64,000 nt of DNA from positions 1 through 64,000 of IMG/VR virus record IMGVR_UViG_3300007512_002775; one strand, given 5' to 3'. Shown piece after piece: positions 1 to 53,848 of this stretch. The notes beneath the pieces are model-generated. The model did not search any database. It saw only the letters and a list, made by a program, of their open reading frames with translations, and had not been told where the DNA came from. Positions within the stretch are counted from its first letter, which is position 1. Every line of letters begins with the position of its first letter. This DNA comes from a virus. Both the position numbers and the translations under genes were made by a program.

Positions 1-1323
1 GATGTTCCATGGTAGTTCCTGCGACGGTATGCCCAGACTGTCTGCTAGCTGTATGGCTTGTAACATGCCTTCGTACCCAGAATCCATGAGACGTTCGAAC
101 TGATCATCATACTCTGAAGCCTCTGTGAGCAGACCTCTTATGTACCTGCGCAGCTCGCCCAGCATGCCTTGGTACGCCTCGCCTTCTGCATCCTCCATCG
201 CCTGACCTATGTCCGGGCCTCGGAGGCCGCGCGCCATCAATTCCTTGGCAGCCACAGCCGGTGGTGCTCCGGCAAATTTTATGAAAGCATCGACCGCGCG
301 AGGGTTCATGCCGGCGGCTGCTCCGAATTCTTGCAAGTCTCTTGGACTCAACTCCACCCTACCAAAGCCTCTTTTCAGACCTGGCGCCGAAGCTCGGTCG
401 ACGCCAGCAAAACTCATGAGGAAACCAGTGGCATCCACCTCTGAGTTGGTGTATCTCATGCTCTTGAGGACTGATTTCACCTGGCCAGGATCGTTATCAG
501 CCAGCAACAAGGCCAACTGTACAGCTAGCACCGGAGATGGCGAATTGGTCGTGGGTTCAGTCCTCAGTCCCGGAAAGATTTGGTCGTACAATTCCAAATC
601 TTCTAACAATCCAAAAAAGTGAGTGACGTCCTGAGCTGACGAAATCCCTTTGACCAGCTCTTCGTGGATCCTGTCAGGAGACACTTCGGTCAGATCGTTG
701 TTATCCAAGATGGCAGACTTAGTCTCGATGTCCAGGTCCGAACCGAGCCGGGCAGCAAAGCGCACGGCTCGGAGGATCCTGAGCTTGTCCTCAGCGAACC
801 TCTCTGCAGGATCGCCGACTGCTCTGATCCTCTTGTTTTGGATGTCTGCGAGCCCGCCCACGTAATCGACCACCTCGCCGGCATCCATGTCATAGAAGAG
901 AGCATTGACAGTCAGATCCCGTCTCTTGACGTCGTCCTCGATCGTGGCGCCCAACTCGACGTCAGGCCTTCTGCCGGTACCTATGTCCTTGCGGAAAGTG
1001 GCGATCTCGTACTCGTTGCCGGCCGGGGTCCAGACCCTGACTACTCCGAAAGCCTTTCCGGTGAGGTCCGTCTTGTTATCTGGATCTTGTGATACCACGT
1101 CTATGACAGCGTCGAGTGATGCGCCGGTAGCCAGGTCATAATCCTTGGGGGTCTTGCCTAGAAGAGTATCTCTCACTGCGCCGCCGACGATGTACAGCTC
1201 TTCGCCGGATGCGCTGAACAGGTCGGACAGCTCACGCAAGTCAGAGGGGATCGCCATGTCCAGCGGTTGGCGAGTGGGAGCAGACTCGATGGCTTCCCGG
1301 ATGTATCGGCGCAGAAGGTTCAT
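1..1323 (-). CDS. CCA-adding tRNA nucleotidyltransferase / poly(A) polymerase family, plus extra C-terminal domain (runs off window edge)
   Basis: Not in the ORF track; translated by hand from ATG at 1323 (ATGA overlap with upstream stop): MNLLRRYIREAIE...LYIVGGAVRDTLLGKTPKDYDLAT...EIATFR...RRDLTVNALFY...RFAEDKLRILRAVRFAARL; open to position 1. Confidence 0.9.
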   Translation of the reverse strand, partial: MNLLRRYIREAIESAPTRQPLDMAIPSDLRELSDLFSASGEELYIVGGAVRDTLLGKTPKDYDLATGASLDAVIDVVSQDPDNKTDLTGKAFGVVRVWTPAGNEYEIATFRKDIGTGRRPDVELGATIEDDVKRRDLTVNALFYDMDAGEVVDYVGGLADIQNKRIRAVGDPAERFAEDKLRILRAVRFAARLGSDLDIETKSAILDNNDLTEVSPDRIHEELVKGISSAQDVTHFFGLLEDLELYDQIFPGLRTEPTTNSPSPVLAVQLALLLADNDPGQVKSVLKSMRYTNSEVDATGFLMSFAGVDRASAPGLKRGFGRVELSPRDLQEFGAAAGMNPRAVDAFIKFAGAPPAVAAKELMARGLRGPDIGQAMEDAEGEAYQGMLGELRRYIRGLLTEASEYDDQFERLMDSGYEGMLQAIQLADSLGIPSQELPWNI

Positions 1324-2012
1324 AGCCCCAATTCCTGCAGGGCTCGGATGGTAGCTCCGCTGTTGCCCGGAATATGTAGTATGCCGATGCCTCCGAGGTC
1401 GTTCCACGCAGTGACCGTCGATGCCTTGTCGTCCACTAACACGTTCGGGACTCCACCTGCTACAGCGTAGTCCGACTTCTGAGCGGCAGGAGTGATGATG
1501 ATCTCGTTGGGCGGAGATATGGGATCCAACCACTCCTCCACCCAGAGTGTCTTGCCTTCTTCCGATGACGCAGCCGCACCAGGGCGGCTTCGGATAGGGG
1601 CCGATAGAATGTTGACGACGTGGCCGGAGGAAGTGAGGAACGGCCAGAGTTGATCCACTCCATCACGCAGCGGCGGCATCGATGCAAAGACGGACCCGGG
1701 ATTGGCGCCGATGGCACCCATCATAAAATGGCGAACTGGTTTGAGGTTCAGATCTGCATGATTCTTTGCACGCCATTCCGGACCGAGCTCTGACTGCACC
1801 TTGCGCAGTCGCTTGAAGTAGCCCTTGGTCATCTCTGCCCCCGGCAGAGGCTCGCCTTCCAGGAGGCGGTTGAGCAACCCTACGACTGCCGATTCAAAGT
1901 CCACTAAGACGCCGTCCATATCACAATACACGACTGAATTCAGTGGTATCATTGGAGCTCCTCCGTCCTGCTCCAGGAGCAGACTTCTCACAAACGCGCG
2001 CAGCAGTCTCAT
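1320..2012 (-). CDS. HAD-superfamily 5'(3')-nucleotidase-like phosphatase with N-terminal tag
   Basis: DMDGVLVDF motif I, ILSAP, K, LVDD; N-terminus MRLLRAFVRSLLLEQ. Confidence 0.8.
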   Translation of the reverse strand: MRLLRAFVRSLLLEQDGGAPMIPLNSVVYCDMDGVLVDFESAVVGLLNRLLEGEPLPGAEMTKGYFKRLRKVQSELGPEWRAKNHADLNLKPVRHFMMGAIGANPGSVFASMPPLRDGVDQLWPFLTSSGHVVNILSAPIRSRPGAAASSEEGKTLWVEEWLDPISPPNEIIITPAAQKSDYAVAGGVPNVLVDDKASTVTAWNDLGGIGILHIPGNSGATIRALQELGL

Positions 2013-2065
2013 AACAACACAATAAATATGCGGTTAGAAGCCGCCATGCAACCTTAGTAGTTCTT

Positions 2066-2512
2066 TTAGAAAGGTTCCTTGGGGATGTGACGAAAGATGA
2101 ATTGAGGGTAGTAGTCTTCGGTGTAATCAGTACCGAACTCCAACCAGACGTGGCCGTCCTCCCAGTCCACCAATCGATAGCCGCGCATGCGCTGTGTACC
2201 CCACTCTCCGGATGCTCCCACATCATCGAAGTCTTCCACTCGAACCTTTGCTAGCGGCCGAGAAAAGAAGATGCTCTTCGTCGCATCCGTATAATCCATG
2301 ACGCCCAAGTGAGACCTGTAACCGTCCTCAGGATCTGCGATCACCTTGAAGGCGACGTCGTCCACTTTGAACTCGCACTCCACTTCGTCTGCACCATAGT
2401 AATCCAGTCTGGCTCCTCGCAGATTGAGAAGGTGCATGCAGACCAGCTCATAGTACTGGACGGGCATGTGGAGATGGGTTTCGACCATCCAGTTGTTGAA
2501 GTGATAATCCAT
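2066..2512 (-). CDS. hypothetical phage protein
   Basis: 148-aa ORF coupled to the phhA stop. Confidence 0.6.
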   Translation of the reverse strand: MDYHFNNWMVETHLHMPVQYYELVCMHLLNLRGARLDYYGADEVECEFKVDDVAFKVIADPEDGYRSHLGVMDYTDATKSIFFSRPLAKVRVEDFDDVGASGEWGTQRMRGYRLVDWEDGHVWLEFGTDYTEDYYPQFIFRHIPKEPF

Positions 2513-4411: not shown

Positions 4412-4412
4412 C

Positions 4413-5202: not shown

Positions 5203-5205
5203 ACG

Positions 5206-5430: not shown

Positions 5431-5441
5431 GGATGCATGGA

Positions 5442-6017: not shown

Positions 6018-6338
6018 TCAGCCGGGTGCGCCGTATTTTGAGCCAGGAGAAGAGAGCCCGCGCCCTGTGAGAGAAGGAGCCGAAGGACCCGACCCTAAAG
6101 CGTCAATGAGAGCCAGGCTGACATCTTGGGTCAGCCGGTCGATGACACGCGCACGACGTTCATCATCCATCTCTCCCACCTTTTGAGACCGACGATTGGC
6201 AAGATCAACGAGCAGCTTATCGACCCATTGGCTGATCCGCTCTTTGTGCTTGTAGATGTCTGAAGCGGAAGCTTCGCGTCGCTCATGCAAGAGCTCTTCA
6301 CGAATGATCCGTCGGAGCTGGCCTTCTGTGATCCTCAT
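6018..6338 (-). CDS. tagged small protein (putative virion internal protein)
   Basis: MRITEGQLRRIIREELLHE; CATATTTA at 6369-6376 upstream. Confidence 0.7.
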   Translation of the reverse strand: MRITEGQLRRIIREELLHERREASASDIYKHKERISQWVDKLLVDLANRRSQKVGEMDDERRARVIDRLTQDVSLALIDALGSGPSAPSLTGRGLSSPGSKYGAPG

Positions 6339-7401: not shown

Positions 7402-8364
7402 ATGACAGACTATCGATTACTCAGACGCCTGATCAGAGAGACTCTACTCCGAGAGGGGGTTTACGATCCAGGCATCCTAAAAGCTGTATTCCTAGCCGGT
7501 GGTCCGGGAAGTGGAAAATCTCATACCGCAAAACTGATATTCGGACTGGACCCGGACAGTGTATATCAAACTGCAACAGCCAGCGGATTGAAGATCATCA
7601 ACAGCGATCCTGCATTCGAACACTTCCTACGAAAGGCCGGAGTGAGCCCAGGCGACTTGGCTAAAATAGCAAAGGAAGACCCCGAGCTATCGTATCAGTT
7701 GGGCATGGATGACAAGCGGGGAGTGCCCCCTGATTCTCCGAGAGGCATCGCTAAAAGGACCAGAGACACCCAGAAAGCCAACCTATTATCCGGAAAAGTA
7801 GGAGTCCTTCTCGACGGCACCGGCGATAATTACGAAAAGATCGCCAGGCGAAAACAAGAAATGGAAGACTTGGGCTACGACACCCACATGCTCTTCATCA
7901 ATACCACGCTGCCAGTGGCTCAGGAAAGGAACCTTGCACGAGAACGAAAGCTGGAACCTGAGATGGTAGCAAGTATCCATGCTAGCGTCATGGAAAACCT
8001 CGGCGCCTTCCAGCTGCTCTTCGGCCGCGCGGATTTTGCCATCATAGATAACACTGAATACGGCCCGATAGAATCTGAAGTCAGTGAAGCAATCGACGAT
8101 TGGTTAGCCCAGCCCGTCCAAAACCCAATTGGCCGCCGATGGGTAGAAGAAGAACTAGCCTACAAAGAGCACGAATTCGGAAAAGAGGACATCGAGAGGA
8201 AAGCACCGGGAGTCGAGCAGCGAACCTTAGGCACCGGTAGAAGAGCACCTGGCCGGCCAGGTGCGGGCGTGCAAGGACAATCTAGCATAAACGATCCCAT
8301 TTCTGATGCTGAAATAGAAAGCCTGCGTAAGAAGCATAAGAAGCAGAAGGAGACGGGCTTCTAA
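7402..8364 (+). CDS. P-loop kinase (zeta-toxin/PNK-like) with N-terminal tag
   Basis: MTDYRLLRRLIRETLLREG; FLAGGPGSGKS, LLDGTG, A.ERN..RER; CATATTTA at 7388-7395; start re-called. Confidence 0.8.
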   Translation: MTDYRLLRRLIRETLLREGVYDPGILKAVFLAGGPGSGKSHTAKLIFGLDPDSVYQTATASGLKIINSDPAFEHFLRKAGVSPGDLAKIAKEDPELSYQLGMDDKRGVPPDSPRGIAKRTRDTQKANLLSGKVGVLLDGTGDNYEKIARRKQEMEDLGYDTHMLFINTTLPVAQERNLARERKLEPEMVASIHASVMENLGAFQLLFGRADFAIIDNTEYGPIESEVSEAIDDWLAQPVQNPIGRRWVEEELAYKEHEFGKEDIERKAPGVEQRTLGTGRRAPGRPGAGVQGQSSINDPISDAEIESLRKKHKKQKETGF

Positions 8365-21148: not shown

Positions 21149-21391
21149 ATGAAGATCACCGAAAACCAACTCAGGATTATCGTCCGGAGCGCTCTAACCG
21201 AATTATTTGTTCGACCGAAGCATAGAAAATCGTTCTTACAACGAGCGCTAGGTGCTAAATACCAAGGCCCGGAATACAGTGGCGACCCGAGCGATCCGGG
21301 TTTTGGAGAATTCGAAGAAGAAAGCATGGACGAAGTAGACGAGCTCGATGAAATCAACACGCAACATTCTGGCAGGCCTGAGACGTTTTAA
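21149..21391 (+). CDS. tagged small protein
   Basis: MKITENQLRIIVRSALTE; ATAATTA at 21122-21128. Confidence 0.7.
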   Translation: MKITENQLRIIVRSALTELFVRPKHRKSFLQRALGAKYQGPEYSGDPSDPGFGEFEEESMDEVDELDEINTQHSGRPETF

Positions 21392-23818: not shown

Positions 23819-24288
23819 GCTGATTCTTTGATCATCTCTCTTACAGTGCGCCTCAGGAGAGATTCGTTCATCCAGGCATCGCGTTTTTGATGCATGGCAT
23901 ATAACTCGTCGTCCCATGGGCCTTCTCCGCCGTACTTGATACAGTTGACTATTGCTTCTTCAGCAGTAAACTCTTTGTAGACTTCAGGCTGGTACATGTC
24001 GTAATAGAATTCTTTATCGATTCCACCTGGCTTAGTCGCACTTGTTTGGTAGTCAAAGACCAGGTCCCCCATCTCAACCCAGCCATGGACAATGGGCTTC
24101 GGTGGGCTCTTCCATTTATCTGTTACAGTGCCGTGGACGACCTTGAACTTGTCCTTGTTGTTGAGGTCTCTATGTTTTTGTGGGGCTCTACCTGGCGTAC
24201 CTTTTATGAAATGATTCTCAAACCATTCATCAGCTTTTTGATACGCGAAAGGAAAACACAAGCCAGTCGGTTGAATATTTTTTGGCAC
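23812..24288 (-). CDS. hypothetical protein with C-terminal tag
   Basis: ends NESLLRRTVREMIKESAW. Confidence 0.6.
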   Translation of the reverse strand: MPKNIQPTGLCFPFAYQKADEWFENHFIKGTPGRAPQKHRDLNNKDKFKVVHGTVTDKWKSPPKPIVHGWVEMGDLVFDYQTSATKPGGIDKEFYYDMYQPEVYKEFTAEEAIVNCIKYGGEGPWDDELYAMHQKRDAWMNESLLRRTVREMIKESAW

Positions 24289-24292: not shown

Positions 24293-24763
24293 TTACTTCC
24301 ACCCTGATCGAGGCTGCTCTAGATCAGGCTGCTGTGTATAGTCGATCGTGATCTCTGTTCCTGGTTCTAAATCGTTATAAGGAAAAAGATGCCTCTCGTT
24401 TCCGATCCACGCATTGTAACAAGTGGGATTGCTCGAATGATTGTGGTACTTTCCGAGCTCAGTGACATCGTAACGGCCCGAGGGCAGTAAGATCTGCGCA
24501 GCACCTAGGTCAGCATCGGCCGATATCGGCTCCATTGCAAAGACGCCTAGGCCTTGAATAGGAGAATTACGAACTGCTAATGCCTCAGAAATCGTGAGGC
24601 CTCCATCATTAGATTCCAAGATCCAGCTTCGGATGCATTCACGCAGCATCCCCATCTTTATCAGATAGTCGCTCACCTTCTTCAGCTGCGCTGGATCGCG
24701 CTCGGATTCATAGCCCGGACGGTCCAAAAACAGGTCACTGCGTGTGGTGGATCGAAAAGCCAT
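24293..24763 (-). CDS. SET-domain protein (putative lysine methyltransferase) with tag
   Basis: LRECIRSWILES, then S.IQGLGVFA, YHNHSSNP, GTEITIDY. Confidence 0.8.
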   Translation of the reverse strand: MAFRSTTRSDLFLDRPGYESERDPAQLKKVSDYLIKMGMLRECIRSWILESNDGGLTISEALAVRNSPIQGLGVFAMEPISADADLGAAQILLPSGRYDVTELGKYHNHSSNPTCYNAWIGNERHLFPYNDLEPGTEITIDYTQQPDLEQPRSGWK

Positions 24764-25152: not shown

Positions 25153-25458
25153 TCACCCGCCGCTAGCGTACGGGCTCAGCAGAGTTTTGATCTTCTTCTC
25201 TAGGCTACCAGCTAAGTCGCCGGCTTCAGCTGCGGCAGCCGTCAGCTGCAGTATGGTCATGACTTCATCTGTTTGATTGGGCGGCAAGTCTGGCAGCTTC
25301 TCTTTGACGAAGTCTTGCAATGTCACTTTTGCTCCAGATGCCGAGAGCGATTCCTGCTCTTGTTCATTCAGTTGCTGTGTGTGGTATTTGACGATGATAG
25401 TCCGTAGTTCTTCACGAATAACTCTTCGAATCTCTTTTTCAGTGAACATATTATACAC
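25153..25458 (-). CDS. tagged small protein
   Basis: FTEKEIRRVIREEL...LNEQ; ATACTTA at 25474-25480. Confidence 0.7.
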   Translation of the reverse strand: MYNMFTEKEIRRVIREELRTIIVKYHTQQLNEQEQESLSASGAKVTLQDFVKEKLPDLPPNQTDEVMTILQLTAAAAEAGDLAGSLEKKIKTLLSPYASGG

Positions 25459-30390: not shown

Positions 30391-30759
30391 CTACCTGCAC
30401 TGCTCCTCATTTATCATCGCCAGAACCAGCCGCTTGAGACTCTGGGTAGACAAGCGGCGGCTTTCATTAAGGGAAACCAGGGGTTCATCGATGGGAAACG
30501 AACGTGTTAAGGAAGTAGAGCTAAATTGATAGTCTTCAATTGGAGCTTCGAGGTCTTGGGCATTAGTGCGCAGCACTTCACTCTTGGTATGCAACACCAC
30601 TTTGTCTGCCAACAAATAGTCTAGTCCGTGATCCACCATCAGATCACGTGTAGACAACTGCTTAAGCGCATCTACCTCAGCAACCACCAAAGGTGCATTG
30701 TTAAGGGCTTTTATGACAGCTAATTCAAGGTCTACAGCTTCTGTGAGTTTTTTGCGCAT
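30391..30759 (-). CDS. tagged hypothetical protein
   Basis: LTEA...LNES..LSTQSLKRLVLAMINEE; CATATTTA at 30785-30792. Confidence 0.6.
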   Translation of the reverse strand: MRKKLTEAVDLELAVIKALNNAPLVVAEVDALKQLSTRDLMVDHGLDYLLADKVVLHTKSEVLRTNAQDLEAPIEDYQFSSTSLTRSFPIDEPLVSLNESRRLSTQSLKRLVLAMINEEQCR

Positions 30760-37941: not shown

Positions 37942-39246
37942 TTATTCACCTTCCACCGTAGAAGCTGCTGCAGCTTGAAGATCCTCTTTGGCTTTCTGAA
38001 CATCTTGCAAGAGCTCTTTACCACCTGGGGTGGTCATCAACGCGTTGGCGATCGCTTCTGTAGGCTCTTTTTCTTGGAGAGCCGCCATAGCTTTCTGGAG
38101 GAGTAGCGGTTTTCCGGTAGTTAGTTGCTCGTCAAAATTCTTCTTTGCATTAACAAAGACCACTTTCTCTGCCGCAGTCAAGGCTTCCTCATCAGATATA
38201 TCCGGCACTTCTTCTCCTTGGCCACCTTTTTGTTGAGCAGCTTGCTGGCGAAATTCTTCAGACTGGGCCATCTTTTGCGCGGTCTGCTTTATTTCTGCGG
38301 ACATTGCTTCTAGCCCTGTCGCTCCTAAATCTAAACCCTTTTCAGCGGCCTTATCAATTATCGATAAAAAAGTATCAACATCGGTCGCTTTTTCCAGGCT
38401 GTTTATCACTTGAAGCTGCAAAATAACCGGTGGGACTGTGCCATCCTCTGCAGCCACGCCTATCTCTTCCATGTAGTCAGCCTGGATCTCTTCTAGCTCC
38501 TGGGCTTGCTTAGCGAATATCTCATCCAAGCCTGTTTCATCGAAATAAGTTTTCAGAGCGTCTTCCAAGTTGGGTTTTTGATCATCGCCTGCTGCAGGCT
38601 CAGCTTCTTGCTCTAAGAGGAGCCTGCCTGCCACGATATCGATCGCCTCGTTGGTACCAAGGTAAAAAAGGCCAGCTAGCTTTTGAAGCAGACTCTTGTC
38701 TTTGCCACCGGCAGCCGCTCCTGCGGCGCCGGCTTTTTTGGCGCCCCCTCCGGAGGCGGGCTCTTGCACGTCGCCACCCACAATGAGGCCGGCCAAAGGT
38801 ATTCGCCAGCCGGATTGATCCAAGTAATCATAAATGTTGTCCGCTTTATCCCAGATTTGCATTGCAGCTTCCGAAGCAATATAATAGTGAGGAGCCAAGA
38901 CGAGTGCAATAATGTCAGCATCGCCACTCGCCAGGGCCTCCTGGTTCTTTTTGAGTATCGGTTCCCACTTCTTCTTGATCTTTTCGTGTCGGTCATCGTA
39001 TTTTGCTGATGCTTTTTCCACAGCTTCCGGACTAAAGGCGAAGAGCAGGTCCAAAGAAAATTTTGCTGCACTGAGTATGTCTTGACCAGTGAGTTTAGCC
39101 GCGTCAACGATGTCAGCAAACGGTTCTACAAAAGCTTTATAGAGGCTCTCCTCATTGAGCTGTCTGGCTTTGACGATCGCGCTGCGGTGGGCCTGCCGGA
39201 TCTTTTGCTTGTAGATGGCCTCAGTAAGTTTTTGGTTCATAAACAC
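37942..39246 (-). CDS. helical Ala/Glu-rich protein (putative virion internal protein)
   Basis: LTEA, LNEE and LLLEQE motifs; ATAATTAT upstream. Confidence 0.65.
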   Translation of the reverse strand: MFMNQKLTEAIYKQKIRQAHRSAIVKARQLNEESLYKAFVEPFADIVDAAKLTGQDILSAAKFSLDLLFAFSPEAVEKASAKYDDRHEKIKKKWEPILKKNQEALASGDADIIALVLAPHYYIASEAAMQIWDKADNIYDYLDQSGWRIPLAGLIVGGDVQEPASGGGAKKAGAAGAAAGGKDKSLLQKLAGLFYLGTNEAIDIVAGRLLLEQEAEPAAGDDQKPNLEDALKTYFDETGLDEIFAKQAQELEEIQADYMEEIGVAAEDGTVPPVILQLQVINSLEKATDVDTFLSIIDKAAEKGLDLGATGLEAMSAEIKQTAQKMAQSEEFRQQAAQQKGGQGEEVPDISDEEALTAAEKVVFVNAKKNFDEQLTTGKPLLLQKAMAALQEKEPTEAIANALMTTPGGKELLQDVQKAKEDLQAAAASTVEGE

Positions 39247-39291: not shown

Positions 39292-39897
39292 ATGTACATA
39301 GGACTAGTGCCCATGGCCGCCAAACCATACCACGCCGGCCATCATTGGCTTGTAGAGAAGGCAGCAGGCGAAAATGACCACGTCATTCTATTCGTCTCAA
39401 CCTCAGATCGAAAAAGAAAAGGCGAAAAACCCATCTTAGGCCGTGACATGGTAAGAGTGTGGCAGGAAGAATTGGAGCCAGTAATGCCGGCCAACGTAGA
39501 GATCCGATACGGGGGCTCTCCGGTACAAAACGTCTACAAAGAGATCCAAGAAGCAGGGGAAATCGGCTCCGAGGACACTTACTTCGTCTACTCCGATGCG
39601 GCGGATACCGCTCTAAACTACCCAGAAAAGAACCGGATCCGCTGGATGGAGCCTCTCTACGGCTTGGGCCAAGTACGATTCCCTGGAGAGGAGGATCCGG
39701 CCGGTTTCACCCGAGGAGAAGGGTCGCCGAACGTGAGCGGCACTGCCATGAGGCAGGCCATACAAGGGTGTGACATGGAGGCCTTTCGTGCAGGCCTTCC
39801 TGATGGAGTCGATGCCGAAAATGTTTACAACATCCTCTGCGGAAAAGTCAATGAGCGATACCTACGCACGTATGTACGAGCAATCATCGCCGGCTGA
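39292..39897 (+). CDS. HxGH cytidylyltransferase-like nucleotidyltransferase with C-terminal tag
   Basis: KPYHAGH, VSGTAMR; ends NERYLRTYVRAIIAG. Confidence 0.8.
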   Translation: MYIGLVPMAAKPYHAGHHWLVEKAAGENDHVILFVSTSDRKRKGEKPILGRDMVRVWQEELEPVMPANVEIRYGGSPVQNVYKEIQEAGEIGSEDTYFVYSDAADTALNYPEKNRIRWMEPLYGLGQVRFPGEEDPAGFTRGEGSPNVSGTAMRQAIQGCDMEAFRAGLPDGVDAENVYNILCGKVNERYLRTYVRAIIAG

Positions 39898-40444: not shown

Positions 40445-40756
40445 TCAGAACGTTTCAGGGAGGCGGGTCCAGACCCTCTCTCCCCATTCCACTCGATCGC
40501 TGCCGTGCACTCCGGCGTTTTCGAGCTCGACGTCGATCAAGCTTTGGATCGCATCCTCGTCCGCAATGTCGACGGCTCCTGCATCGATGGCGTTGATGAC
40601 TATCAAAGCCACATCATCCAAAGTCTCTCCGGATGCCGATCGCATGTGAGGGCCATCCCATGCACCGGGAGGCCATCGGATGCCAGGCCGCAACTGGCCT
40701 TCGCTCAGCAGACTCTCTCTGATGATCCGCCTGAGCTTGTTTTCGGTGATCCTCAT
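40445..40756 (-). CDS. tagged small protein
   Basis: MRITENKLRRIIRESLLSE; start re-called. Confidence 0.7.
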   Translation of the reverse strand: MRITENKLRRIIRESLLSEGQLRPGIRWPPGAWDGPHMRSASGETLDDVALIVINAIDAGAVDIADEDAIQSLIDVELENAGVHGSDRVEWGERVWTRLPETF

Positions 40757-40757: not shown

Positions 40758-41015
40758 TTAAACGTAGACTCCCTGCGAGGGAACATTCCGGCGGAGCCGG
40801 CTCTCAACATCCCTGAGGGCTGCAGCGAGGGCATCCACTACGGCACCGTCTTCGAGATCCAGATCGGTATACATCTGTTCTTCATACAGCATCTCTAGGA
40901 TGTGATCAGCCATGCTCTGCTGCAGATCTGCCATCTCCGGGTCGATCTGCTCGGATACAAGCTTCCGCTTCTCTTCGCGGATGATCCGTCTTAGCTGTCG
41001 TTTTGTTACTTTCAC
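40758..41015 (-). CDS. tagged small protein
   Basis: MKVTKRQLRRIIREEKRKLVSE; CATACTTA at 41035-41042. Confidence 0.72.
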   Translation of the reverse strand: MKVTKRQLRRIIREEKRKLVSEQIDPEMADLQQSMADHILEMLYEEQMYTDLDLEDGAVVDALAAALRDVESRLRRNVPSQGVYV

Positions 41016-41053: not shown

Positions 41054-42538
41054 CTAAACTTTTATCCTATCGATCACCTGTGGCGAGCTCACAGCCAGCT
41101 GCTTGTAGAGCTTCTTGACGATGGCCTTGGTGATGTCCCCCATCTCTTTTTTGGTCGCCTTGTTCTTCAGCGTCTTCTCGACCTCCTTCTGGATGGTCTT
41201 CGCCAGATCGTTGCCGACGACTTTATCGATCTCCTTCTTGGCCTGCTTGCGCGCAATGCGCTCGATCTCACGCTTGTCAGTCTTGGTCAGCTCTTCGATG
41301 AGGAGGGACTCGTTGATGTACTCGCCGAGAAGCTCCCCCATGTCGTCGGCGACTGCTTGATGGATTGGGCCGGCCCCAAGGCCACCCCCAATAGGATCAT
41401 AAAGTACGTCGTCTGAGCTAGGAGTTCTTGGTACCTTTCCTTTCTGCACTTGCCCAGACCACTTAATCAAACCCGAAGGATCGGTGAAAAAATCATTGCT
41501 ATCTGCCCGAAACTTTCCGCGGGTGTCTTTGCTCGTCATAGCCCCCCATGCAGTCGATGGTCGGAACCTTAGAGTCATTTGCTCTTCTCCCTCGGCGTAT
41601 TTTTTCGCTTCGTTTGAAATAGATTTTATAGTAGATAACACTGCGTCCAATTCTCCCAGACTCATCGTGGGGGAGGTCACGTCATGCGTCAACACACCAT
41701 CAGCCCGGCGCGGATTATTACTATCTCCGCCGAGAACAACCTCTAAAAAGGGAAGGTAATTCCGGCCTAACGCATCTTTTAGAGTAACGTAATAGTTATC
41801 CACTTGAAGAATGCTCTTAGGCATTACTTTTTGGCCCTTCCCCGAAACATATTTTCCTACGACAACTAATTTGTCCTTCACTAGCTGGTCTAAGCGTGGG
41901 CCGCCTTTCGGGCCGGCAGTCATTTCACCCGGTTTAGTCGGATGAGGAACGTTTTTAGGCGGCCTAACGTCAGGAATTGTATTGCCATCCCAATTAGGAG
42001 GAACATATGATGGATCTACTTTATGAATAGAATTGAGCACAAGATCATACGCTTTCTGAATTTGGGGTGCCTGACTTTTAGAATGAGCCTTAACTTTTTC
42101 GTACCAGGCGTCCACCATTTCTTGCGCTTCGGCCGTCGTGAAGACTGGCGTGCCGTCAGTTTGAATGGCCAGAAGCGATGACTTCAAGTCAGATCTGTCC
42201 ATCCAATTGCCAACCATCGCAAAATTCAATTTTTTCATGCTCACGCCCAGCTGATCAGTGCCGTTTTCTCCTGCCAGCAAGACCACATCAGCTTTAGGTT
42301 CTGGCTGTCCACCTCCAGCTTGACATGCGCCCCATAATTCGCGCTCCCCTAAGTCACCTAACGATATCAAAATCGGTTGAACTTCTTCAGAGTTTGTTAT
42401 AAAACAATCTTTACCAACAATAGCACCAGTAAGATTGTTGATGGAATCGCTAAGGTTTCTCTCGCTTTGTTGGCCAGAGACAAACTCCACCAAGAGGCGT
42501 CGCACCCACTCTCGCAATAGTCGTTCGTTGGTCATCAT
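41054..42538 (-). CDS. tagged protein with PD-(D/E)XK-like domain and C-terminal helical domain
   Basis: NERLLREWVRRLLVE; PKADVVL...GVSMK; YINESLLIEE before the last domain. Confidence 0.6.
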   Translation of the reverse strand: MMTNERLLREWVRRLLVEFVSGQQSERNLSDSINNLTGAIVGKDCFITNSEEVQPILISLGDLGERELWGACQAGGGQPEPKADVVLLAGENGTDQLGVSMKKLNFAMVGNWMDRSDLKSSLLAIQTDGTPVFTTAEAQEMVDAWYEKVKAHSKSQAPQIQKAYDLVLNSIHKVDPSYVPPNWDGNTIPDVRPPKNVPHPTKPGEMTAGPKGGPRLDQLVKDKLVVVGKYVSGKGQKVMPKSILQVDNYYVTLKDALGRNYLPFLEVVLGGDSNNPRRADGVLTHDVTSPTMSLGELDAVLSTIKSISNEAKKYAEGEEQMTLRFRPSTAWGAMTSKDTRGKFRADSNDFFTDPSGLIKWSGQVQKGKVPRTPSSDDVLYDPIGGGLGAGPIHQAVADDMGELLGEYINESLLIEELTKTDKREIERIARKQAKKEIDKVVGNDLAKTIQKEVEKTLKNKATKKEMGDITKAIVKKLYKQLAVSSPQVIDRIKV

Positions 42539-43833
42539 CCCGCCAGAATCATGCTCTTGATATAAGTACGCAGCAACGCCTCTCCTTGACCCTTGGGAAT
42601 GCGATAAGATGCGCCAATGATCTGGTTCAGCGGCGCGAACGCCCCGGTCAGCTTGTAGAGCGCCTTGCTGCCAGGCGGGTGTTCGAAGACGATGCCCTCC
42701 ATGGAGGACGAAATGTTATCAGGAGAGCCGAGCTTGTCGAGCTGTCGTTTGAGCATGTCGCGGCGCGCATCAGCCTTGGCGTCACGGGCCCCTTCGATCG
42801 CAGCGACGGCGGACTCCAGCTCGCTCTTCAGGCGATCGATCTCCTCATTGTGACCGGCAGTCAACACCGAGGCCGTGTCGCGCAGCACCTCGACCGCCAG
42901 ATCGTGGATCGCCAGCTGCACCGGGACCGTCACAGCACCAGAGGCTTTCATGGCGTTCGTCTGTGTGCCGAGCGCACTGACCTGGCGCTGCACGTCTCGA
43001 TTCAGGCCGCTCTTGATGTCGGCCAGCTGCGGCAGCGTGTCCGGATCCAGGCCCCGGCCGAGGCCGACGATGCGACGGATCAGATCCTCTTGCTTGTTGA
43101 CGGCGATCGGCAGATTTCCGACGGGCCCTTGGCGCAGCTTCTCCTCGACGAACTCTGCCATGGTCTGATCGTCTCTGACCCCCAGGGCGTCGATCTTACT
43201 CACGAAGTCCGAGTGCACCTCGGTGCCGCTCAAGTCCTGCAGCTCGATCACTTGCGGGCCGATGATGTTCCACTGCGCCTCGTCCTGCTCTGCCTGCGCG
43301 GCGTCGATTGCGGTCACCAGCCGATCGAAGTCGTCCTCACCGCGGAGCTGCACGCCGACGAGATTGCCTTCCGCATCGAACTCCTGCAGGTTGTGCATGA
43401 CGACGTAGTCGCCGCCGTATACGATGACGTTGGGATTGCCGGTGTAGACGATCTCAGCATTGATGTAACGCTGGCCACCGGGCGTTTGTGGTTCGAATAT
43501 GTCGGCTAGCGCCGATTGGTCCAGGCTGGCAAGCCCACCCTCGATGGCCGCAAAGCCGCCGGTGAACGCGCTCTCCGCCGGATGGCCGACCCACTTGGAA
43601 GCGAACTCCTCCGGGGTCATGCCGCCGGCGAGCATGTTGCCCTTGTTGCGTGCGGTCCGAATGGTACCGGTCTGGGGGTCTACTTGGAACTTGAAGAATA
43701 TGTTTTGGCCATCGACCTTCTCGACGACCGGGGTCTCGGCTGCCACGACATCCGCCAAGAGGTCTTTGAGTTCACCGAAGGTGAAGTCTAAGTTCTCGTG
43801 TAAGTGTGCTAGATGTCCGGCGAGTGCGCCCAC
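42535..43833 (-). CDS. ligase/nucleotidyltransferase-like protein (KxDG; DUF6267-like) with C-terminal tag
   Basis: GHLAHL.E, EKVDGQN, NAEI, EGIVF, YKLTG.FAP.NQ; ends EALLRTYIKSMILAG. Confidence 0.65.
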   Translation of the reverse strand: MGALAGHLAHLHENLDFTFGELKDLLADVVAAETPVVEKVDGQNIFFKFQVDPQTGTIRTARNKGNMLAGGMTPEEFASKWVGHPAESAFTGGFAAIEGGLASLDQSALADIFEPQTPGGQRYINAEIVYTGNPNVIVYGGDYVVMHNLQEFDAEGNLVGVQLRGEDDFDRLVTAIDAAQAEQDEAQWNIIGPQVIELQDLSGTEVHSDFVSKIDALGVRDDQTMAEFVEEKLRQGPVGNLPIAVNKQEDLIRRIVGLGRGLDPDTLPQLADIKSGLNRDVQRQVSALGTQTNAMKASGAVTVPVQLAIHDLAVEVLRDTASVLTAGHNEEIDRLKSELESAVAAIEGARDAKADARRDMLKRQLDKLGSPDNISSSMEGIVFEHPPGSKALYKLTGAFAPLNQIIGASYRIPKGQGEALLRTYIKSMILAG

Positions 43834-43890: not shown

Positions 43891-45051
43891 CTAAAGAAGA
43901 CCGGCAAGGCTTCGCCAGCGTTCCATGATCAGGTCGTCAGAACTGTTCTGAGATCTGGCCGACTCGTGGGCCATGCCTTTTTGTTGGCGACCCAGAGCGT
44001 TTCCTAACGAAGTGAGCACCGGAATGATGTCACTAGCAGGCGCCATCACCTTATGACCTTTGATAGAAGCACCCGGGTCGACGATCATCGTCCCGGACCA
44101 ACGGTGGTGACCGTCCAAGATCTCATCACCACCCGTGATGTAAGCCCCTAGCTCCTTGCCGTCGAAGCCTCCACCTAAAGCAAACGCGAGAGATTTTCCG
44201 ACGAGAACATTGCTCTGTGTGGGAATCATGGCAGCCACGTCGATCGGCTCGTTCTCTTTGACCTCGATCGAATCGTCAGGCTCAGTCTCATCCTTCAAGC
44301 CCTTGACGAGGAAGCTCAGAGCCAGGCCCTTGATGTCGTCAATGACGACCTTTTCTTTCTCCCCCTTTACGGGCGCACCGGGCATCCCAGCCTTGTGCTT
44401 TTGAGGATACTTGTCTTCCAACAGACGCGCAGCCAAACGATCGTAGGCTTCTTCCTTGACCTCTTCTTTCTTCGCTTGAGAGGCATGCCACGCCTCAACG
44501 TCCTCTTCGCCACCGGCCAACGGATCGGCCATGTCGATGTTCAGCTGGCCGCCAGGCTCCAATGCATCTTTGACATGATCGATATCGCTGGGCTCGAGCG
44601 CTGGCATCTGATCTTTTGGTTTTCCGCCTGTGGGAAGTTTGCCTTGCACGTTTGCAATGTTATCTCGCAAAAAGGAAGGCCCCTTTTCTAGAACCCAAGC
44701 CGCAATCGCCTTGATGCCTTCCGGGGTATCCGCCTTTGGAATCCCTGGGGTGTGCTCAGGGTTATGAAAGGCCGCGATAGCTGCGTAGACCGGCGCTTCA
44801 GGATCGCCGCTAGCCAATTGAGCCACGAGCTCAGTCGCATCGATTTTTGTTATATTATCATTCCCACTAAACGCAGTCATTTGTGGATTCTGGAACTCGG
44901 TTGGGAGGCCTTCTATTGCAGCTTCTTCTGCTGTCGCCTCTTCCTGTTCGAATAACAACGAAACCAAAGGCGTACTACGCATTGGCCGCTGCGAATTAGT
45001 GACTTCCTGTATGATCATCGAACGCAGCTCGTTAGCTGTGAGTTTTTTCAT
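43891..45051 (-). CDS. ParB/Srx-like domain protein, tagged at both ends
   Basis: MKKLTANELRSMIIQEV; MIPTQS, ILDGHHRW; ends ERWRSLAGLL; CATATTTA at 45080-45087. Confidence 0.7.
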   Translation of the reverse strand: MKKLTANELRSMIIQEVTNSQRPMRSTPLVSLLFEQEEATAEEAAIEGLPTEFQNPQMTAFSGNDNITKIDATELVAQLASGDPEAPVYAAIAAFHNPEHTPGIPKADTPEGIKAIAAWVLEKGPSFLRDNIANVQGKLPTGGKPKDQMPALEPSDIDHVKDALEPGGQLNIDMADPLAGGEEDVEAWHASQAKKEEVKEEAYDRLAARLLEDKYPQKHKAGMPGAPVKGEKEKVVIDDIKGLALSFLVKGLKDETEPDDSIEVKENEPIDVAAMIPTQSNVLVGKSLAFALGGGFDGKELGAYITGGDEILDGHHRWSGTMIVDPGASIKGHKVMAPASDIIPVLTSLGNALGRQQKGMAHESARSQNSSDDLIMERWRSLAGLL

Positions 45052-47030: not shown

Positions 47031-48194
47031 CTATAGCTCCGTAGTTTGATCCATGGCTTTCTTCAATAACTGCAGTTTTTTCTTTTTAGAAACGGATTGC
47101 CATCTATCTAACGCTTTTTCTACTAAGTCATCACTGAGCTCAGCAGCTTGTTTTAGTGCTGGAATGGCGGCCTCAATCTTGGCGGCCGCTTCCTCTGCAG
47201 CCGCGGAATCAAGAGCCCCGCTGGCGACAAGTTTATCTAATTTTCTCTTAATCACAGCAGGGCTACGTTTTGCACGACCCGAGAGCTGATTAATCACCGT
47301 CAATTTCAGCTCCTCAGGAATTCCTAAGTCTTGAATTCTTCCATCCAGCTCCCGGGCTGCCTCTTTTGCAACCTCCTTATAAGCTGGTAGGACAAAAGAG
47401 CTCACGAAAAAAAACCTAAACGAATCTAATTCTTTTACGGCCTGCGGGACAGCACGGAGCTCTTCTAAATCTTCGCTGTCCAATACTTCGGCGTCTCCCA
47501 AGACGTCAATGTATTCCCCTACAGCAAAATTCATGAGTGCTTCTAGATCTTCTCTTTTTACTTGTTGGGCAAAATACCCCAGTCTGCTAGTAATACGATT
47601 GATCTCTTGGCGTATTCCAGAAGGTCCTGAGTAGCCAAATTCTTGAGCCAGGTCTTCGAGGCTCATTCCTTCGTCCTCAAGGGGTTCAGCCGATATGGGT
47701 TCGACGTCGCCAAAGTAATCTATGCCGCCAGTCCGATATTGATCTAATTCAGCCTCTTCTTCAGCGGTCAGTACCTCATAGAGCACACGGCGTATCGCCC
47801 TTTTTATAGCTTCTTCTTGCACACTCTCCTCCTCGCCAACGTCTTCCTCCGTTTGAGGAACGCGATCGTTGGCTTCGTCTACTAATTTATGGAGCTGCTT
47901 GTAGTACCACTCCACCTCCTCAGGAGGCACGGCTCGAGCCAACACGCTAGCAGCGTTGGCGAGTTCTTCCACCGAAACCGGAACAAATTCGTCATCGTCA
48001 ACAGGGGGTTCTGCAACTGCTAGCTGTACAGCCATGAGTGGAGAAGGATCGATCGGATCTGATGTCGATTCGATCTCTTCGTCTTCGACTTCTTCATCAA
48101 ACTGTGCTTCCGTTGGATTGGGCAACGAATCATATATCCCACGAGATTGAACGGCAAACTGCTCGCTTAATGATTGTTTATTGATCTTAGTCAT
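47031..48194 (-). CDS. acidic hypothetical (putative virion) protein
   Basis: internal EEAIKRAIRRVLYE tag; ATAATTA at 48210-48216. Confidence 0.65.
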   Translation of the reverse strand: MTKINKQSLSEQFAVQSRGIYDSLPNPTEAQFDEEVEDEEIESTSDPIDPSPLMAVQLAVAEPPVDDDEFVPVSVEELANAASVLARAVPPEEVEWYYKQLHKLVDEANDRVPQTEEDVGEEESVQEEAIKRAIRRVLYEVLTAEEEAELDQYRTGGIDYFGDVEPISAEPLEDEGMSLEDLAQEFGYSGPSGIRQEINRITSRLGYFAQQVKREDLEALMNFAVGEYIDVLGDAEVLDSEDLEELRAVPQAVKELDSFRFFFVSSFVLPAYKEVAKEAARELDGRIQDLGIPEELKLTVINQLSGRAKRSPAVIKRKLDKLVASGALDSAAAEEAAAKIEAAIPALKQAAELSDDLVEKALDRWQSVSKKKKLQLLKKAMDQTTEL

Positions 48195-48212
48195 CACATA
48201 CCTCAATACTAA

Positions 48213-49056: not shown

Positions 49057-49063
49057 GGCGATA

Positions 49064-49261: not shown

Positions 49262-49274
49262 CGATAAACTCTCC

Positions 49275-50482: not shown

Positions 50483-50498
50483 TCTAGCTCCATCTTCA

Positions 50499-51179: not shown

Positions 51180-51545
51180 CTATTTTACCTCGTAGTCGCT
51201 TTCGAATTCATCTTGATTCACAGCCAATAGTTCATCTTCGCCTAAAGGCGGTTGGCTCGGATCTAGATCACCATCGCCCGGGTCTATGATGTAGAGACCG
51301 TCAGGATCCACTTCATAAAGAACTTTCTCATGTATTCGGACGTCTTGAATGACTTCAGGGTCTTCTGGCGGCGGGTCAAACCTCGGCTCTTCGGGCATCC
51401 GGAGGATTATTTGGATGTCCCCATTCGGCTCTTCGATGACGTTATCGACTGTATACTCGTATTGAGACGCTTTATGGCGTACTTTCAAACCCGGGGAAAT
51501 AATCACATTACCCGCTTCGTCCCTGACGTCTGTTTCACCTAACAT
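51180..51545 (-). CDS. acidic hypothetical protein
   Basis: AAGGAG RBS, TAATG coupling. Confidence 0.6.
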   Translation of the reverse strand: MLGETDVRDEAGNVIISPGLKVRHKASQYEYTVDNVIEEPNGDIQIILRMPEEPRFDPPPEDPEVIQDVRIHEKVLYEVDPDGLYIIDPGDGDLDPSQPPLGEDELLAVNQDEFESDYEVK

Positions 51546-53848
51546 TATTTCTCCTTCAAACCGGCCAACTCGACCCAACGGACTCCTTCCTCAGAGCTTT
51601 CGTGCGTTTCCAGCAACGATCGTTGAGGGGTAGGACCTAGTAGCACTTCAACCAGTCGGCCTCGCTCATAATAAACACTCTCCTGTTGAGTAAACGTACC
51701 AAACGCCGGGGCTTGTGTCGCTGCCCTACCGCGCCTTTTGACGCGTCGAGTTGTACGAGTCTGTTCTTCCGAAGACTCTTGACGCTCGGCTGCAGGTTCT
51801 TTCTTCTTGGCCGGCTTCTTTTCAGCCGCCGGACGGCGACCTTCCGCCCTCTCCTTTCTACGGACTCTGTCGCCCAGAGAATCTGTATTATCTGTAGGCT
51901 TTACTTCGACTCCCACCTTTTTGGCACGATCTATCATGGCTTGCGTAGGCTTGCCAGGCTTTTTACGCTTTTTCTTGGCTTCGCCTGTTTTTTCTTCTGA
52001 ACTGCTGGCCGAAGTGCTAACGTCTTCCTCTTCTATCTCTATTTCGGCGCTCATCTCTACTGCTGCGTCGAGAGCGGCACGGGCATTGACGCCGGCTTCC
52101 TTTGCGACATCTACTGCAGCTTGCATATTGCCATCGGCGATTGCTTGCGTGAAATTAATCGTCTGCTGGCGTGACATTCCTACATCGTCCATGTAACGAT
52201 CGAACTGCCTTTCAGCCGCCGCATCTCTTTTCTCCAAGTAACTCAACAGCGTGCCCAGATTGTCCGCCTCGCCGGCAGCAGCTTGAGCAGCTTGCTTAAC
52301 ATCTTCAGACGGTATACCGGTTATTATCACATCATATTGATTCTGCAGTCGTGTAGCTAAGTCTCTAGCCAAGGTTGCGACTTTATCATCAGCAACACCT
52401 TGATCCTTGATGGACTTTTCCACGTCCTTAAACATGATCGCCTCAGATAATAGCACTCTCTGCAGCGAAGATTGATATACCCAGCCGGCCGTCTTCTTGA
52501 TCTGCTTACGTTCAAACAGGGCGTCCGTCAAGGAATGGTGGTGTACCCACGATTCTTCAGTTACGTCTCCTGATTGGGGCTTCTGGGTTGGGGCTTCGGC
52601 GGGGGGTCCTGGGTCTACTTCTGCTTCTTGCGCTACTTCCTCGGCCTCGTCAGGATCGAAGATGACAATCTTGGATTTGGGGTCATCGTTAATGAGTGCC
52701 GCCAGTTCCGGAGTCATGCCGGCGACATCTTCAGGGGCAGTAACCTTTCTTTCAAGGTCACCGATGGACACCAACTCCATGCCCTTGAGGTCATCTGCAC
52801 TGTCTGTTCTCTGGCCAGGCGTCATCTGTTGGACGGCTGTGGGAGAAGCGGGGACTGTTCCCACGCCGGGTACATTGACTGTTTGAGAAGCTCCGGCTAC
52901 AGTACTGCCACCCGCGACTGCCGTGGCGTCGCCAGTCGCCAAAGCTTGAAGATCTGTGGATATGGCGGTCGCGGCCGCTTGGGCCTGTTGCTTCTCTGCC
53001 TCTGCTTCTGCTCTTTTAGCTTCTAGCTCTTTGGCCTTGTTAATAATCTGTTCGAGAGAAGTGTCCAACAGATCGTTGGCGAACTCCTTAGAAGATAGAG
53101 TTTGGCCCTTGAAAAACGCTGCTACTTTACCCAAATACCCTTCTGGTGCCTTGGGCTCCTTGAAGGAATTCTGCGCAGCTTTTGTTAGTAAGCCAGCGTC
53201 TGGAAACTTAATACCTTTTGCCCATGTCATAAACTTATTCGAGGCTATGTCTCGAATAGGAAAATCTTTGAAAGCTTTCACTGCCTGATCCACGGCTTCT
53301 TCGGGAGATAACGTGGTTCCTTTATCATCAACTTCAATTGTGCCAGTATCCGTTCCTTTCATCCAGAACTCAGCAGCTTCCTCAGCAGCTGCCAAGGGAT
53401 CCTCCGAATACGGCAGCTTCGCCAATTCAGATCCAAAAAGAACTATAGCGTCATAAAAAGAATCTCTGACATTGTTTATGTTGGTGATCGCCGTGGTGAT
53501 CTTTCCAATCTGCTTTGCGGACTCTTGGGGGTCCCCCTTGAGAGCCACCTTGACCAAAGACAGGTTACCAGGTAGTGATTTTTTGAGATTGGCGAGGTAC
53601 TTAGTAGTTCTTTCGAATCCGAGCTCACCGACATCAACGATCAATTCATCGATGGTCTCGCCGGCAGCCTTTGACATCTGATCTAGTTTTTCTAGTTCTT
53701 TTCTATCTATCTTCTCAACGAGAACGCGACCGATAGAACCCTCTAAAAGGCCTGTTTCTACTGCACGCGCATAATCTAACTGAGCCCAGACCTTCCTTGC
53801 TATATTCTCGAGAAAGACCTCAGATTGGTTGGAGTTTATTTTTGGCAT
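51545..53848 (-). CDS. large helical protein (putative virion internal protein)
   Basis: 767 aa; repeated LxE sites; ends RWVELAGLKEK. Confidence 0.65.
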   Translation of the reverse strand: MPKINSNQSEVFLENIARKVWAQLDYARAVETGLLEGSIGRVLVEKIDRKELEKLDQMSKAAGETIDELIVDVGELGFERTTKYLANLKKSLPGNLSLVKVALKGDPQESAKQIGKITTAITNINNVRDSFYDAIVLFGSELAKLPYSEDPLAAAEEAAEFWMKGTDTGTIEVDDKGTTLSPEEAVDQAVKAFKDFPIRDIASNKFMTWAKGIKFPDAGLLTKAAQNSFKEPKAPEGYLGKVAAFFKGQTLSSKEFANDLLDTSLEQIINKAKELEAKRAEAEAEKQQAQAAATAISTDLQALATGDATAVAGGSTVAGASQTVNVPGVGTVPASPTAVQQMTPGQRTDSADDLKGMELVSIGDLERKVTAPEDVAGMTPELAALINDDPKSKIVIFDPDEAEEVAQEAEVDPGPPAEAPTQKPQSGDVTEESWVHHHSLTDALFERKQIKKTAGWVYQSSLQRVLLSEAIMFKDVEKSIKDQGVADDKVATLARDLATRLQNQYDVIITGIPSEDVKQAAQAAAGEADNLGTLLSYLEKRDAAAERQFDRYMDDVGMSRQQTINFTQAIADGNMQAAVDVAKEAGVNARAALDAAVEMSAEIEIEEEDVSTSASSSEEKTGEAKKKRKKPGKPTQAMIDRAKKVGVEVKPTDNTDSLGDRVRRKERAEGRRPAAEKKPAKKKEPAAERQESSEEQTRTTRRVKRRGRAATQAPAFGTFTQQESVYYERGRLVEVLLGPTPQRSLLETHESSEEGVRWVELAGLKEK

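Follow-up and report, generated by a model that had tools for sequence, protein, structure and literature searches.

In bacteriophage T4 the proteins IPI, IPII, IPIII and Alt, otherwise unrelated, share a short leader at the start codon, the capsid targeting sequence (CTS), which is removed by the prohead protease gp21. The CTS is a 10-residue N-terminal leader; with Asp at P1 it is no longer processed but still targets. gp21 cuts after L/I-x-E, and gp22 is cut at a glutamyl-alanyl bond (PMC9026906). The internal proteins that T-even phages carry are highly diverse and only the CTS is conserved among them (PMC3012670). In the giant phages phiKZ, 201phi2-1 and SPN3US, dozens of head-internal proteins are cut after Glu, and some of their propeptides are cut at multiple sites (PMC9026906). 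We have analyzed the first 64 kb of one 74,947-bp IMG/VR virus record (IMGVR_UViG_3300007512_002775), a stretch of 64,000 nucleotides referred to below as the window, in which a short peptide tag recurs on unrelated proteins. The source is an uncultured marine T4-like jumbo phage of ~270 kb. An earlier note on this DNA had proposed that the tag is a modular address label that loads diverse enzymes into the head for co-injection and undergoes protease processing, as the leaders of T4 internal proteins do. From the comparisons presented here we consider it probable that the tag is a lineage-specific capsid-targeting leader that binds the acidic prohead core and is trimmed by an S77 protease after I/L-x-E, and that its internal copies mark joints between fused modules.

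The likeness to the T4 CTS has several parts. Both are short leaders at the start codon of otherwise unrelated proteins, and both begin with M-K and end with I-x-E, or more broadly (I/L)-x-E in the tag; T4 ipII and ipIII begin MKTYQEFIAE and gp24 begins MAKINELLRE (NC_000866). The tagged lineage encodes a Peptidase_S77 in a head module ordered as in T4, and, again as in T4, its set of small tagged genes varies between relatives. Unlike the CTS MKTYQEFIAE, to which it has no detectable similarity, the tag is longer (14-22 residues) and strongly basic. With phiKZ, 201phi2-1 and SPN3US (gp175/gp245) the lineage shares the condition of a jumbo phage with a diverged gp21-type protease. The cleavage motif there is S/A-x-E, whereas here it is I/L-x-E, and the head module here is T4-type by Pfam (Gp23, Portal_T4); for those three phages the review PMC9026906 mentions no shared, near-invariant linear leader. 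The tag also resembles the cargo-loading peptides of bacterial microcompartments (BMC) and encapsulins. These are portable amphipathic helices, ~15-20 residues long, that stand at either end of unrelated enzymes, are followed by a poorly conserved linker and bring the enzymes into a protein shell. Those peptides, in contrast, are not removed by a protease, and in the present case the capsid of the phage would serve as the shell. The leaders of PduD and PduP may be similar to the tag in kind. A BMC encapsulation peptide proper was rejected, the BMC shell (PF00936) being matched in 0 of 5 related complete or near-complete genomes, while the control genomes did give matches. A precursor of the type of ribosomally synthesized and post-translationally modified peptides (RiPP) was also rejected: the tagged bodies have a median of 107 amino acids, are acidic and include several full enzymes, and Pfam scans of the window showed no RiPP enzyme.

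The motif is confirmed as real by sequence statistics, with about 14 copies in the window supported. On re-translation the peptides reported earlier were present at their coordinates (Table 1; genes are designated by one end coordinate). The core pattern [LI][RK]x-x-[IV][RK]x-x-[LIV] gave 10 proteome matches, against 0.15 expected from shuffles. A hidden Markov model (HMM) of the seed copies gave 15 matches at E <= 0.013, the next only at E > 1.5; two of the 15 are in non-coding frames, leaving 13 in plausible open reading frames (ORFs). A non-circular test used profiles rebuilt from other genomes only. The type-1 profile, MKITKRQLRRIIRE (consensus M-K-I-T-K-R-Q-L-R-R-I-I-R-E), robustly recovered the copies of 6338, 41015, 40756, 21149, 7402, 25449 and 1323 and the C-terminal copy of 23812. 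The type-2 profile, (M)N-LLR-x-Y-IR-x-LL-x-E (consensus (M)N-L-L-R-E-Y-I-R-E-L-L-x-E), is found on enzymes and produced 8 window matches at >= 8 bits where 0.2 were expected. Seven are in coding frames: 2012, 42538, the internal copy of the CCA-adding protein, 1323, the C-terminal copy of 39897, the internal copy of the SET protein, and 23812. The eighth, at 64602-64856 (+), and another non-coding-frame match at 57509-57709 (-) lie opposite to or overlap likely genes; they look like chance and were not counted. Pfam assigns the carriers to unrelated groups, namely PolyA_pol/CCA, HAD/NT5C-like, Zeta_toxin/AAA_33, SET, a cytidylyltransferase-like protein and orphans. With the exception of the C-terminal copies ending in -AG, every window copy has an [LIV]-x-E no more than 12 residues from its core Leu.

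The earlier note had claimed the tag on more than 15 unrelated proteins. Recurrence on unrelated proteins is upheld, at about 14 copies, with 47031 and 30391 at background. Its N-terminal copies stood at 1323, 2012, 6338, 7402, 21149, 40756, 41015 and 42538, that of 45051 being only intermediate, and the tag it had placed at 25458 is real, although the ATG is at 25449 and 25458 is an upstream GTG. The internal copies of the CCA and SET proteins were recovered; that of 47031 scored at background, though a similar helix is kept in its orthologs in L013, L021, L023, L029 and L037 (L-numbers denote related loci). Among the C-terminal copies, those of 23812, 39897 and 42535 held and that of 30391 did not. 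The statement that replication and core metabolic genes lack the tag was borne out with the non-window profile, none of PolIII alpha, DnaB, RecA, ribonucleotide reductase (RNR), ThyX, dUTPase, GroEL, sigma, aceA/aceB or GMP reductase rising above background.

The tag is widespread in related marine phages. The protein of family A1 (Table 1) led to 53 related marine metagenome loci, and a scan of IMG/VR for the tag yielded 65 loci, of which many lie on 250-293 kb contigs. An iterated HMM over 1.9 Mb of related loci found 715 copies (618 distinct) at E <= 0.1 and 0 in shuffled sequence. Among 589 distinct DNA copies a start codon (ATG, GTG or TTG) stands exactly seven codons before the core Leu in 89%, with a Shine-Dalgarno-like sequence upstream in 62%. 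All six codons are used for the core Leu (CTT 209, CTA 132, CTC 92, TTA 86, CTG 42, TTG 28), which shows that selection acts on the peptide and not on the DNA or RNA. When the 85-residue orphan of the window (orf85) was searched against databases, it matched dozens of small marine proteins, each with similarity confined to the first ~22 residues and an unrelated remainder, and alignment of the carriers past residue 22 showed no similarity. Positions 1-2 and 4-15 of these matches (M-K-x-T-K-R-Q-L-R-R-I-I-R-E-E) are invariant, position 3 being Val or Ile, and an identical orf85 is encoded on a 129,756-bp contig. Across the 535 distinct tagged proteins the median length is 107 amino acids; the net charge over the first 14 residues is +4.4, and the rest of the protein has a median pI of 4.6.

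The most useful relative is G001, an IMG/VR genome of 293,409 bp with direct terminal repeats, rated 100% complete. It has 48 proteins in common with the fragment analyzed here, largely in the same order, and its PolIII alpha is 62% identical. The untagged ORFs of this genome have a median pI of 5.8. About 36 of its proteins are N-terminally tagged by profile-profile scoring and about 45 copies are found by HMM at E < 0.1, clustered at 1-4 kb, at 47.6-58 kb, where 25 genes in a row are tagged, and at 221, 251, 266-267 and 284-293 kb. The number of small tagged genes beside family A1 varies from 2 to ~8 between relatives.

The end of the tag has the form of a T4-type cleavage site. Numbered from the core Leu, position +4 is Ile in 92% of copies and Val in 8%, and +6 is Glu in 89%, giving an I-x-E ending. 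Conservation collapses after +7 or, in a subfamily with EEKxKLLxE, after a second L-x-x-E at +14. The bodies of the tagged proteins avoid the same motif. In 393 non-redundant tagged bodies the proportion of Glu versus Asp two residues after Leu or Ile is 0.422, against 0.489 overall (z = -4.7). This [LI]-x-E deficit is the strongest of 40 residue-class by offset tests; there is no bias at offsets 1, 3 and 4, and the deficit is absent among untagged proteins, whether taken as a whole (z = +1.7) or limited to the acidic ones (z = +0.9). Such avoidance is what exposure to an L/I-x-E protease predicts.

A suitable protease is present in the clade. A Peptidase_S77 (gp21-type) is encoded by all ten large tag-bearing IMG/VR contigs tested (E 1e-25 to 1e-27). 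The head module of G001 contains, in order, Terminase_6N, Portal_T4, a 283-residue protein, Peptidase_S77 (171474-172082), four small proteins, a very acidic scaffold-like protein of 562 residues and two Gp23 genes, and corresponds to the T4 order 20-67-68-21-22-23-24. The tandem Gp23-type genes (176269-178164 and 178261-180147) share at least their first 70 residues and may be capsid and vertex paralogs or a recent duplication. Five genomes encode, directly downstream of the S77 protease, two small proteins whose sequences open with 'MAKITKRMLKGIVKECLVEIL..' and '..KITPNFLKRIVVEEARKL..'. Profile-profile comparison (hhalign) aligned them with the tag in register, with probabilities of 95% (E 3e-8) and 80% (E 1e-5). 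When all 327 ORFs of G001 were ranked, these protease-adjacent proteins fell among the tagged ones. From gene position and by analogy with T4 genes 67 and 68 we infer that they are core proteins. A test of expression timing was uninformative, neither the T4 late promoter TATAAATA nor the 'ATGAATATTTAT' motif being enriched.

Internal copies are found where N-terminally tagged modules have been fused to other genes. A module that opens with the tag and continues EYDD..SQELPW stands free, with its tag at the N-terminus, at 292799-293407 of G001, and is internal at 289271-291820 of the same genome and in the CCA protein of the window. A second, tag followed by EELTK[ST]DK, is a small free-standing protein with an N-terminal tag in L007, L023 and L031; in L003, L018, L028 and L029 it is fused onto large proteins at their C-terminus, as it is in the 494-residue orphan of the window (orf494), where a degenerate internal copy precedes the 'EELTKTDK' module near 41296. 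The conserved motif EELTK[ST]DK(K/R)EI opens a small domain directly after the tag. The helix that ends 23812 in the window is an inter-domain joint in G001, with a further domain of ~250 residues after it, and 36 open frames have at least two tags. These pairs of fused and free-standing modules fit the idea of the earlier note that internal copies are polyprotein joints.

The C-terminal copy of 39897 is kept at the C-terminus of its orthologs in L003, L004, L006 and L007, and that of 42535 in L003, L007, L018 and L022. At 42535-42538 of the window the ligase-like gene ends on a stop codon that overlaps the start codon of orf494 (GGATGA), and its C-terminal copy is followed immediately by the N-terminal tag of the next gene.

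Taken together, the comparisons suggest the following mechanism. The tag would form a basic amphipathic helix of 14-22 residues, with a net charge of about +4.4 over 14 residues, and would bind the acidic prohead core during head assembly, so that the fused protein is enclosed in the head. The Peptidase_S77 would then release the cargo by a cut behind the terminal I-x-E or L-x-E of the tag, and the cargo would leave the head with the DNA at infection. Core binding, cleavage, packaging and ejection are the proposed parts of this scheme. The predicted cargo consists mostly of small acidic orphans, together with the CCA-adding enzyme, the P-loop kinase, HAD phosphatases, the SET protein and others. 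Each internal copy would be the N-terminal tag that a module kept when it was fused to a gene upstream, and would serve as a joint for cutting, and C-terminal copies, which have no Glu, would address their cargo and stay uncut.

Several observations weigh against this reading. Glu follows the I-x-E in 54% of copies. Ala is typical after T4 cleavage sites. The avoidance of [LI]-x-E is modest, ~14%. The contig of the window contains no head gene and no S77 protease, so that on this fragment the link between tag and protease passes through syntenic relatives. A narrow HMM gave the protease-adjacent proteins only 2-6 bits, and the tag on them, which profile-profile comparison alone supports, is thus suggestive and not proven. 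The tag profile matched the N-termini of T4 ipI, ipII, ipIII, gp21, gp22, gp23, gp24, gp67 and gp68 with a probability of 0.3-1.4% (hhalign), which makes the tag an analog of the CTS and not a member by homology. With 36-45 tagged genes per genome the cargo far exceeds the handful in T4; it includes housekeeping-type enzymes (CCA-adding, kinase, HAD phosphatases, SET), and the tag also occurs in internal and C-terminal positions. Most tagged bodies are acidic, unlike the T4 internal proteins, which are basic. The conserved, tagged A1 lies beside FEN, GroEL and sigma genes and not head genes, and is unrelated to the scaffold. At the C-terminus the copies lack Glu and close with -AG or -G, a form kept in orthologs; these cannot be cleavable leaders of the same kind. 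Finally, the tag was not found in 50,697 GenBank phage records, nor was a close cultured phage, the best PolIII alpha match among GenBank phages being 30% identical. The peptide strings were not found in the literature searched. The label proposed in the earlier note is partly supported: the S77 protease, the I-x-E ending, the tags of the protease neighbors, the avoidance of [LI]-x-E and the fused modules at internal copies speak for a portable address read by a head protease, while the tag has no detectable likeness in sequence to the T4 CTS, the protease is reached through relatives and co-injection stays a proposal.

The alternative that fares best, although we consider it unlikely, is a docking or assembly helix for a non-virion structure of the infected cell, with no cleavage and no packaging; tagged enzymes and small proteins might, for example, collect on A1 or on another body made by the phage. 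A1 is an all-helical acidic protein whose N-terminal tag, degenerate in the window, is canonical in L001, L039 and L046; the G001 member scores 20.6. Among large genes it has the highest codon-usage score per residue and so looks abundant, and its AlphaFold2 model is all alpha, with a mean confidence (pLDDT) of 55. A single-sequence scan of IMG/VR with A1 found no relatives. A1 was rejected as a capsid or scaffold protein, being all-helical, modeled with low confidence and unrelated to the G001 scaffold or T4 gp22. A tagged, abundant-looking, helical protein away from head genes keeps this alternative alive, one helix at both N- and C-termini is typical of docking peptides, and the tagged CCA-adding enzyme, kinase, phosphatases and ligase-like protein could make one RNA-repair complex. 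Docking leaves unexplained, however, why conservation stops at I-x-E, why tagged bodies avoid [LI]-x-E and why the proteins next to the protease bear the tag, and none of the five genomes searched has a BMC shell gene.

That the tag is a helix that carries acidic proteins to a polyanion (DNA, RNA or membrane), independently of scaffold and protease, seems to us improbable. It is amphipathic, its charge of +4.4 over 14 residues sits on bodies of median pI 4.6, and many carriers act on nucleic acids. Near-invariance over hundreds of copies, including non-basic residues (T at -4, Q at -1, I-I at +3/+4, E at +6), exceeds what charge binding needs, however, and neither the register with the start codon nor the I-x-E ending nor the [LI]-x-E avoidance is predicted. 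A regulatory signal has a smaller chance still, whether a degron for the phage ClpP with a host unfoldase, a signal related to GroEL or an effect on translation initiation. The phage does encode ClpP (CLP_protease 8.9e-24) and GroEL, and the motif lies directly at the start codon; the free use of six Leu codons and of both Glu, Lys and Gln codons, on the other hand, speaks against a signal in the RNA, internal and C-terminal copies look functional, and a degron explains neither the tags of the head cluster nor the [LI]-x-E avoidance. The slightest prospect belongs to a functionless peptide left by array duplication and recombination, with the common 5' end kept as recombination substrate: long tandem arrays of tagged genes exist (the 25 consecutive genes of G001) and differ in content between relatives, but the leader is conserved as peptide and not as DNA, the opposite of what a recombination substrate predicts, and the tag is also on scattered unrelated enzymes and on C-termini.

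Table 1. Copies of the tag in the window and the family A1 gene. Bits refer to the type-2 profile where so marked; Pfam E-values follow the family name.
Feature	Peptide	Coordinates (strand)	Carrier	Support and remarks
N-terminal tag, type 2	MNLLRRYIREAIE	1285..1323 (-)	CCA-adding/poly(A)-polymerase-family protein, gene 1-1323, runs off contig	PolyA_pol 6.5e-32; score 23.9 (non-window profile); 11.9 bits (type-2)
Internal tag	MLGELRRYIRGLLTE	121..165 (-)	CCA protein, joint to C-terminal 'EYDD...SQELPW' module	13.9 bits (type-2)
N-terminal tag	MRLLRAFVRSLLLE	1971..2012 (-)	HAD/NT5C-like hydrolase, 1320-2012	20.7 bits (type-2); weak Pfam NT5C/Hydrolase
N-terminal tag, type 1	MRITEGQLRRIIREELLHE	6282..6338 (-)	106-aa orphan, 6018-6338	Top score, 45.7; 97.5% probability
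N-terminal tag	MTDYRLLRRLIRETLLRE	7402..7455 (+)	Zeta_toxin/AAA_33 P-loop kinase, 7402-8364	Zeta_toxin 3.3e-8; score 26.2
N-terminal tag	MKITENQLRIIVRSALTE	21149..21202 (+)	80-aa orphan	Score 36.9; 96.6% probability
C-terminal copy	LLRRTVREMIKE, then SAW and stop	23824..23859 (-)	158-aa protein, 23812-24288	Score 19.6; 8.8 bits
Internal copy, residues ~37-50	MGMLRECIRSWILE	24614..24655 (-)	SET-domain protein, 24293-24763	SET 3.5e-6; 9.9 bits (type-2); first ATG, at 24763, has the better Shine-Dalgarno
N-terminal tag	MFTEKEIRRVIREEL	25405..25449 (-)	98-aa orphan, 25153-25449	Score 24.4; 87.7% probability
Unsupported C-terminal copy	LKRLVLAMINEEQCR	30394..30438 (-)		Not in top 45 type-1 scores nor among type-2 matches
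Family A1		37942..39240 (-)	Conserved all-helical acidic 432-434-aa protein, Gly/Ala-rich linker	N-terminal tag degenerate here
C-terminal copy	LRTYVRAIIAG	39862..39894 (+)	Cytidylyltransferase-like protein, 39292-39897	10.5 bits
N-terminal tag	MRITENKLRRIIRESLLSE	40700..40756 (-)	103-aa acidic orphan	Score 42.0; remainder pI 4.1
N-terminal tag	VKVTKRQLRRIIREEKRKLVSE	40950..41015 (-)	85-aa acidic orphan (orf85)	Score 43.3
N-terminal tag	MMTNERLLREWVRRLLVE	42485..42538 (-)	494-aa orphan (orf494)	15.4 bits (type-2)
C-terminal copy	LRTYIKSMILAG	42538..42573 (-)	432-aa ligase-like orphan, 42535-43833	7.1 bits (type-2)
Weak N-terminal copy	MKKLTANELRSMIIQE	45004..45051 (-)	386-aa protein	Score 18.4; 18.8% probability; intermediate
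Extra candidate		45313-45360 (-)		Absent from the earlier note
Marginal internal copy	IKRAIRRVLYE	47775..47807 (-)	391-aa protein, 47031-48206	Background score, 14.0

The record from which the window comes is classed as linear and is rated 28% complete by CheckV, which makes it a fragment of a ~270-kb genome. Nearly all of its genes are on the minus strand. Pfam identifies genes of replication and repair (PolIII alpha, DnaB, RecA, two 5'-3' exonucleases, Fpg and HhH-GPD glycosylases), of nucleotide metabolism (RNR, ThyX, dUTPase, dCMP deaminases and GMP reductase) and others (ClpP, GroEL, sigma-70, aceA/aceB, an M15 peptidase and a DNA methylase). PHROGs recognized almost nothing in the block from 36 to 54 kb, where 20 proteins had no useful match. 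A placement of the tag cluster inside a head module was dropped, since Pfam shows metabolic genes mixed in (pterin dehydratase, superoxide dismutase-like). When the contig ends are joined (window 1-300 and 74891-74947), the CCA frame runs 18 codons more and stops directly before a recA-like ATG. This is probably a coincidence: a circular contig was rejected because there is no terminal overlap, IMG/VR classes the record as linear and 28% complete, and the CCA and recA genes are far apart in G001.

Other genes of the fragment include a biopterin-dependent aromatic amino-acid hydroxylase at 2512-3348 (-) (Pfam 1.4e-71) and, 43 kb from it, a pterin-4a-carbinolamine dehydratase at 46616-47029 (-), a pair that makes up cofactor recycling. 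A 226-residue protein at 50499-51179 (-) has the C-terminal domain of Fe/Mn superoxide dismutase (3.6e-11) and a G001 counterpart 48% identical, and an untagged protein of 465 residues at 9988-11385 (-), 44% identical in G001, is a DUF2201 putative metallopeptidase with a VWA-like domain. The ClpP gene lies beside ThyX and RNR at contig 67633-68235 (-) (L056:4634-5236); its product is 72% identical in G001 and is distinct from the S77 prohead protease of the clade. The top codon-usage score belongs to an orphan of 767 residues at 51545-53848 (-), for which tblastn finds no match in G001 and whose first ~150 residues are a domain common to metagenome proteins of 123-860 residues. It was rejected as a capsid protein: the ESM Atlas was uninformative, HMMER gave only orphans with the same ~150-residue N-terminal domain, and the clade has its true capsid genes, which are Gp23-type, elsewhere.

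Relative to the T4 CTS principle the predicted system is new in its different sequence, its far greater expansion, its presence on enzymes and its N-terminal, internal and C-terminal placement. More tentatively, this marine T4-like clade with genomes of ~270-290 kb may devote more than a tenth of its genes (~36-45 per genome, with several hundred distinct proteins sampled) to capsid cargo addressed by one 14-residue peptide. Such cargo would include a pre-packaged kit for tRNA and RNA repair and modification (CCA-adding enzyme, P-loop kinase, HAD phosphatases, ligase-like protein, SET methyltransferase) and fast-changing small acidic proteins, possibly DNA mimics or anti-defense factors, with modules that fuse and separate freely because the head protease cuts them. 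If this is true, no phage would be known with a larger injected proteome predictable from sequence, and the injected proteins of a clade of abundant, uncultured marine giant phages could be read from sequence. A T4-style leader would then be able to expand from a handful of internal proteins to cargo genes by the dozen, some of them for enzymes that had not so far been regarded as cargo of virions, and the free fusing and splitting of tagged genes would be explained. Hundreds of small acidic orphans would become candidates for factors of host takeover in the first minutes or of anti-defense, and the 14-residue address peptide would be usable for packaging foreign proteins.

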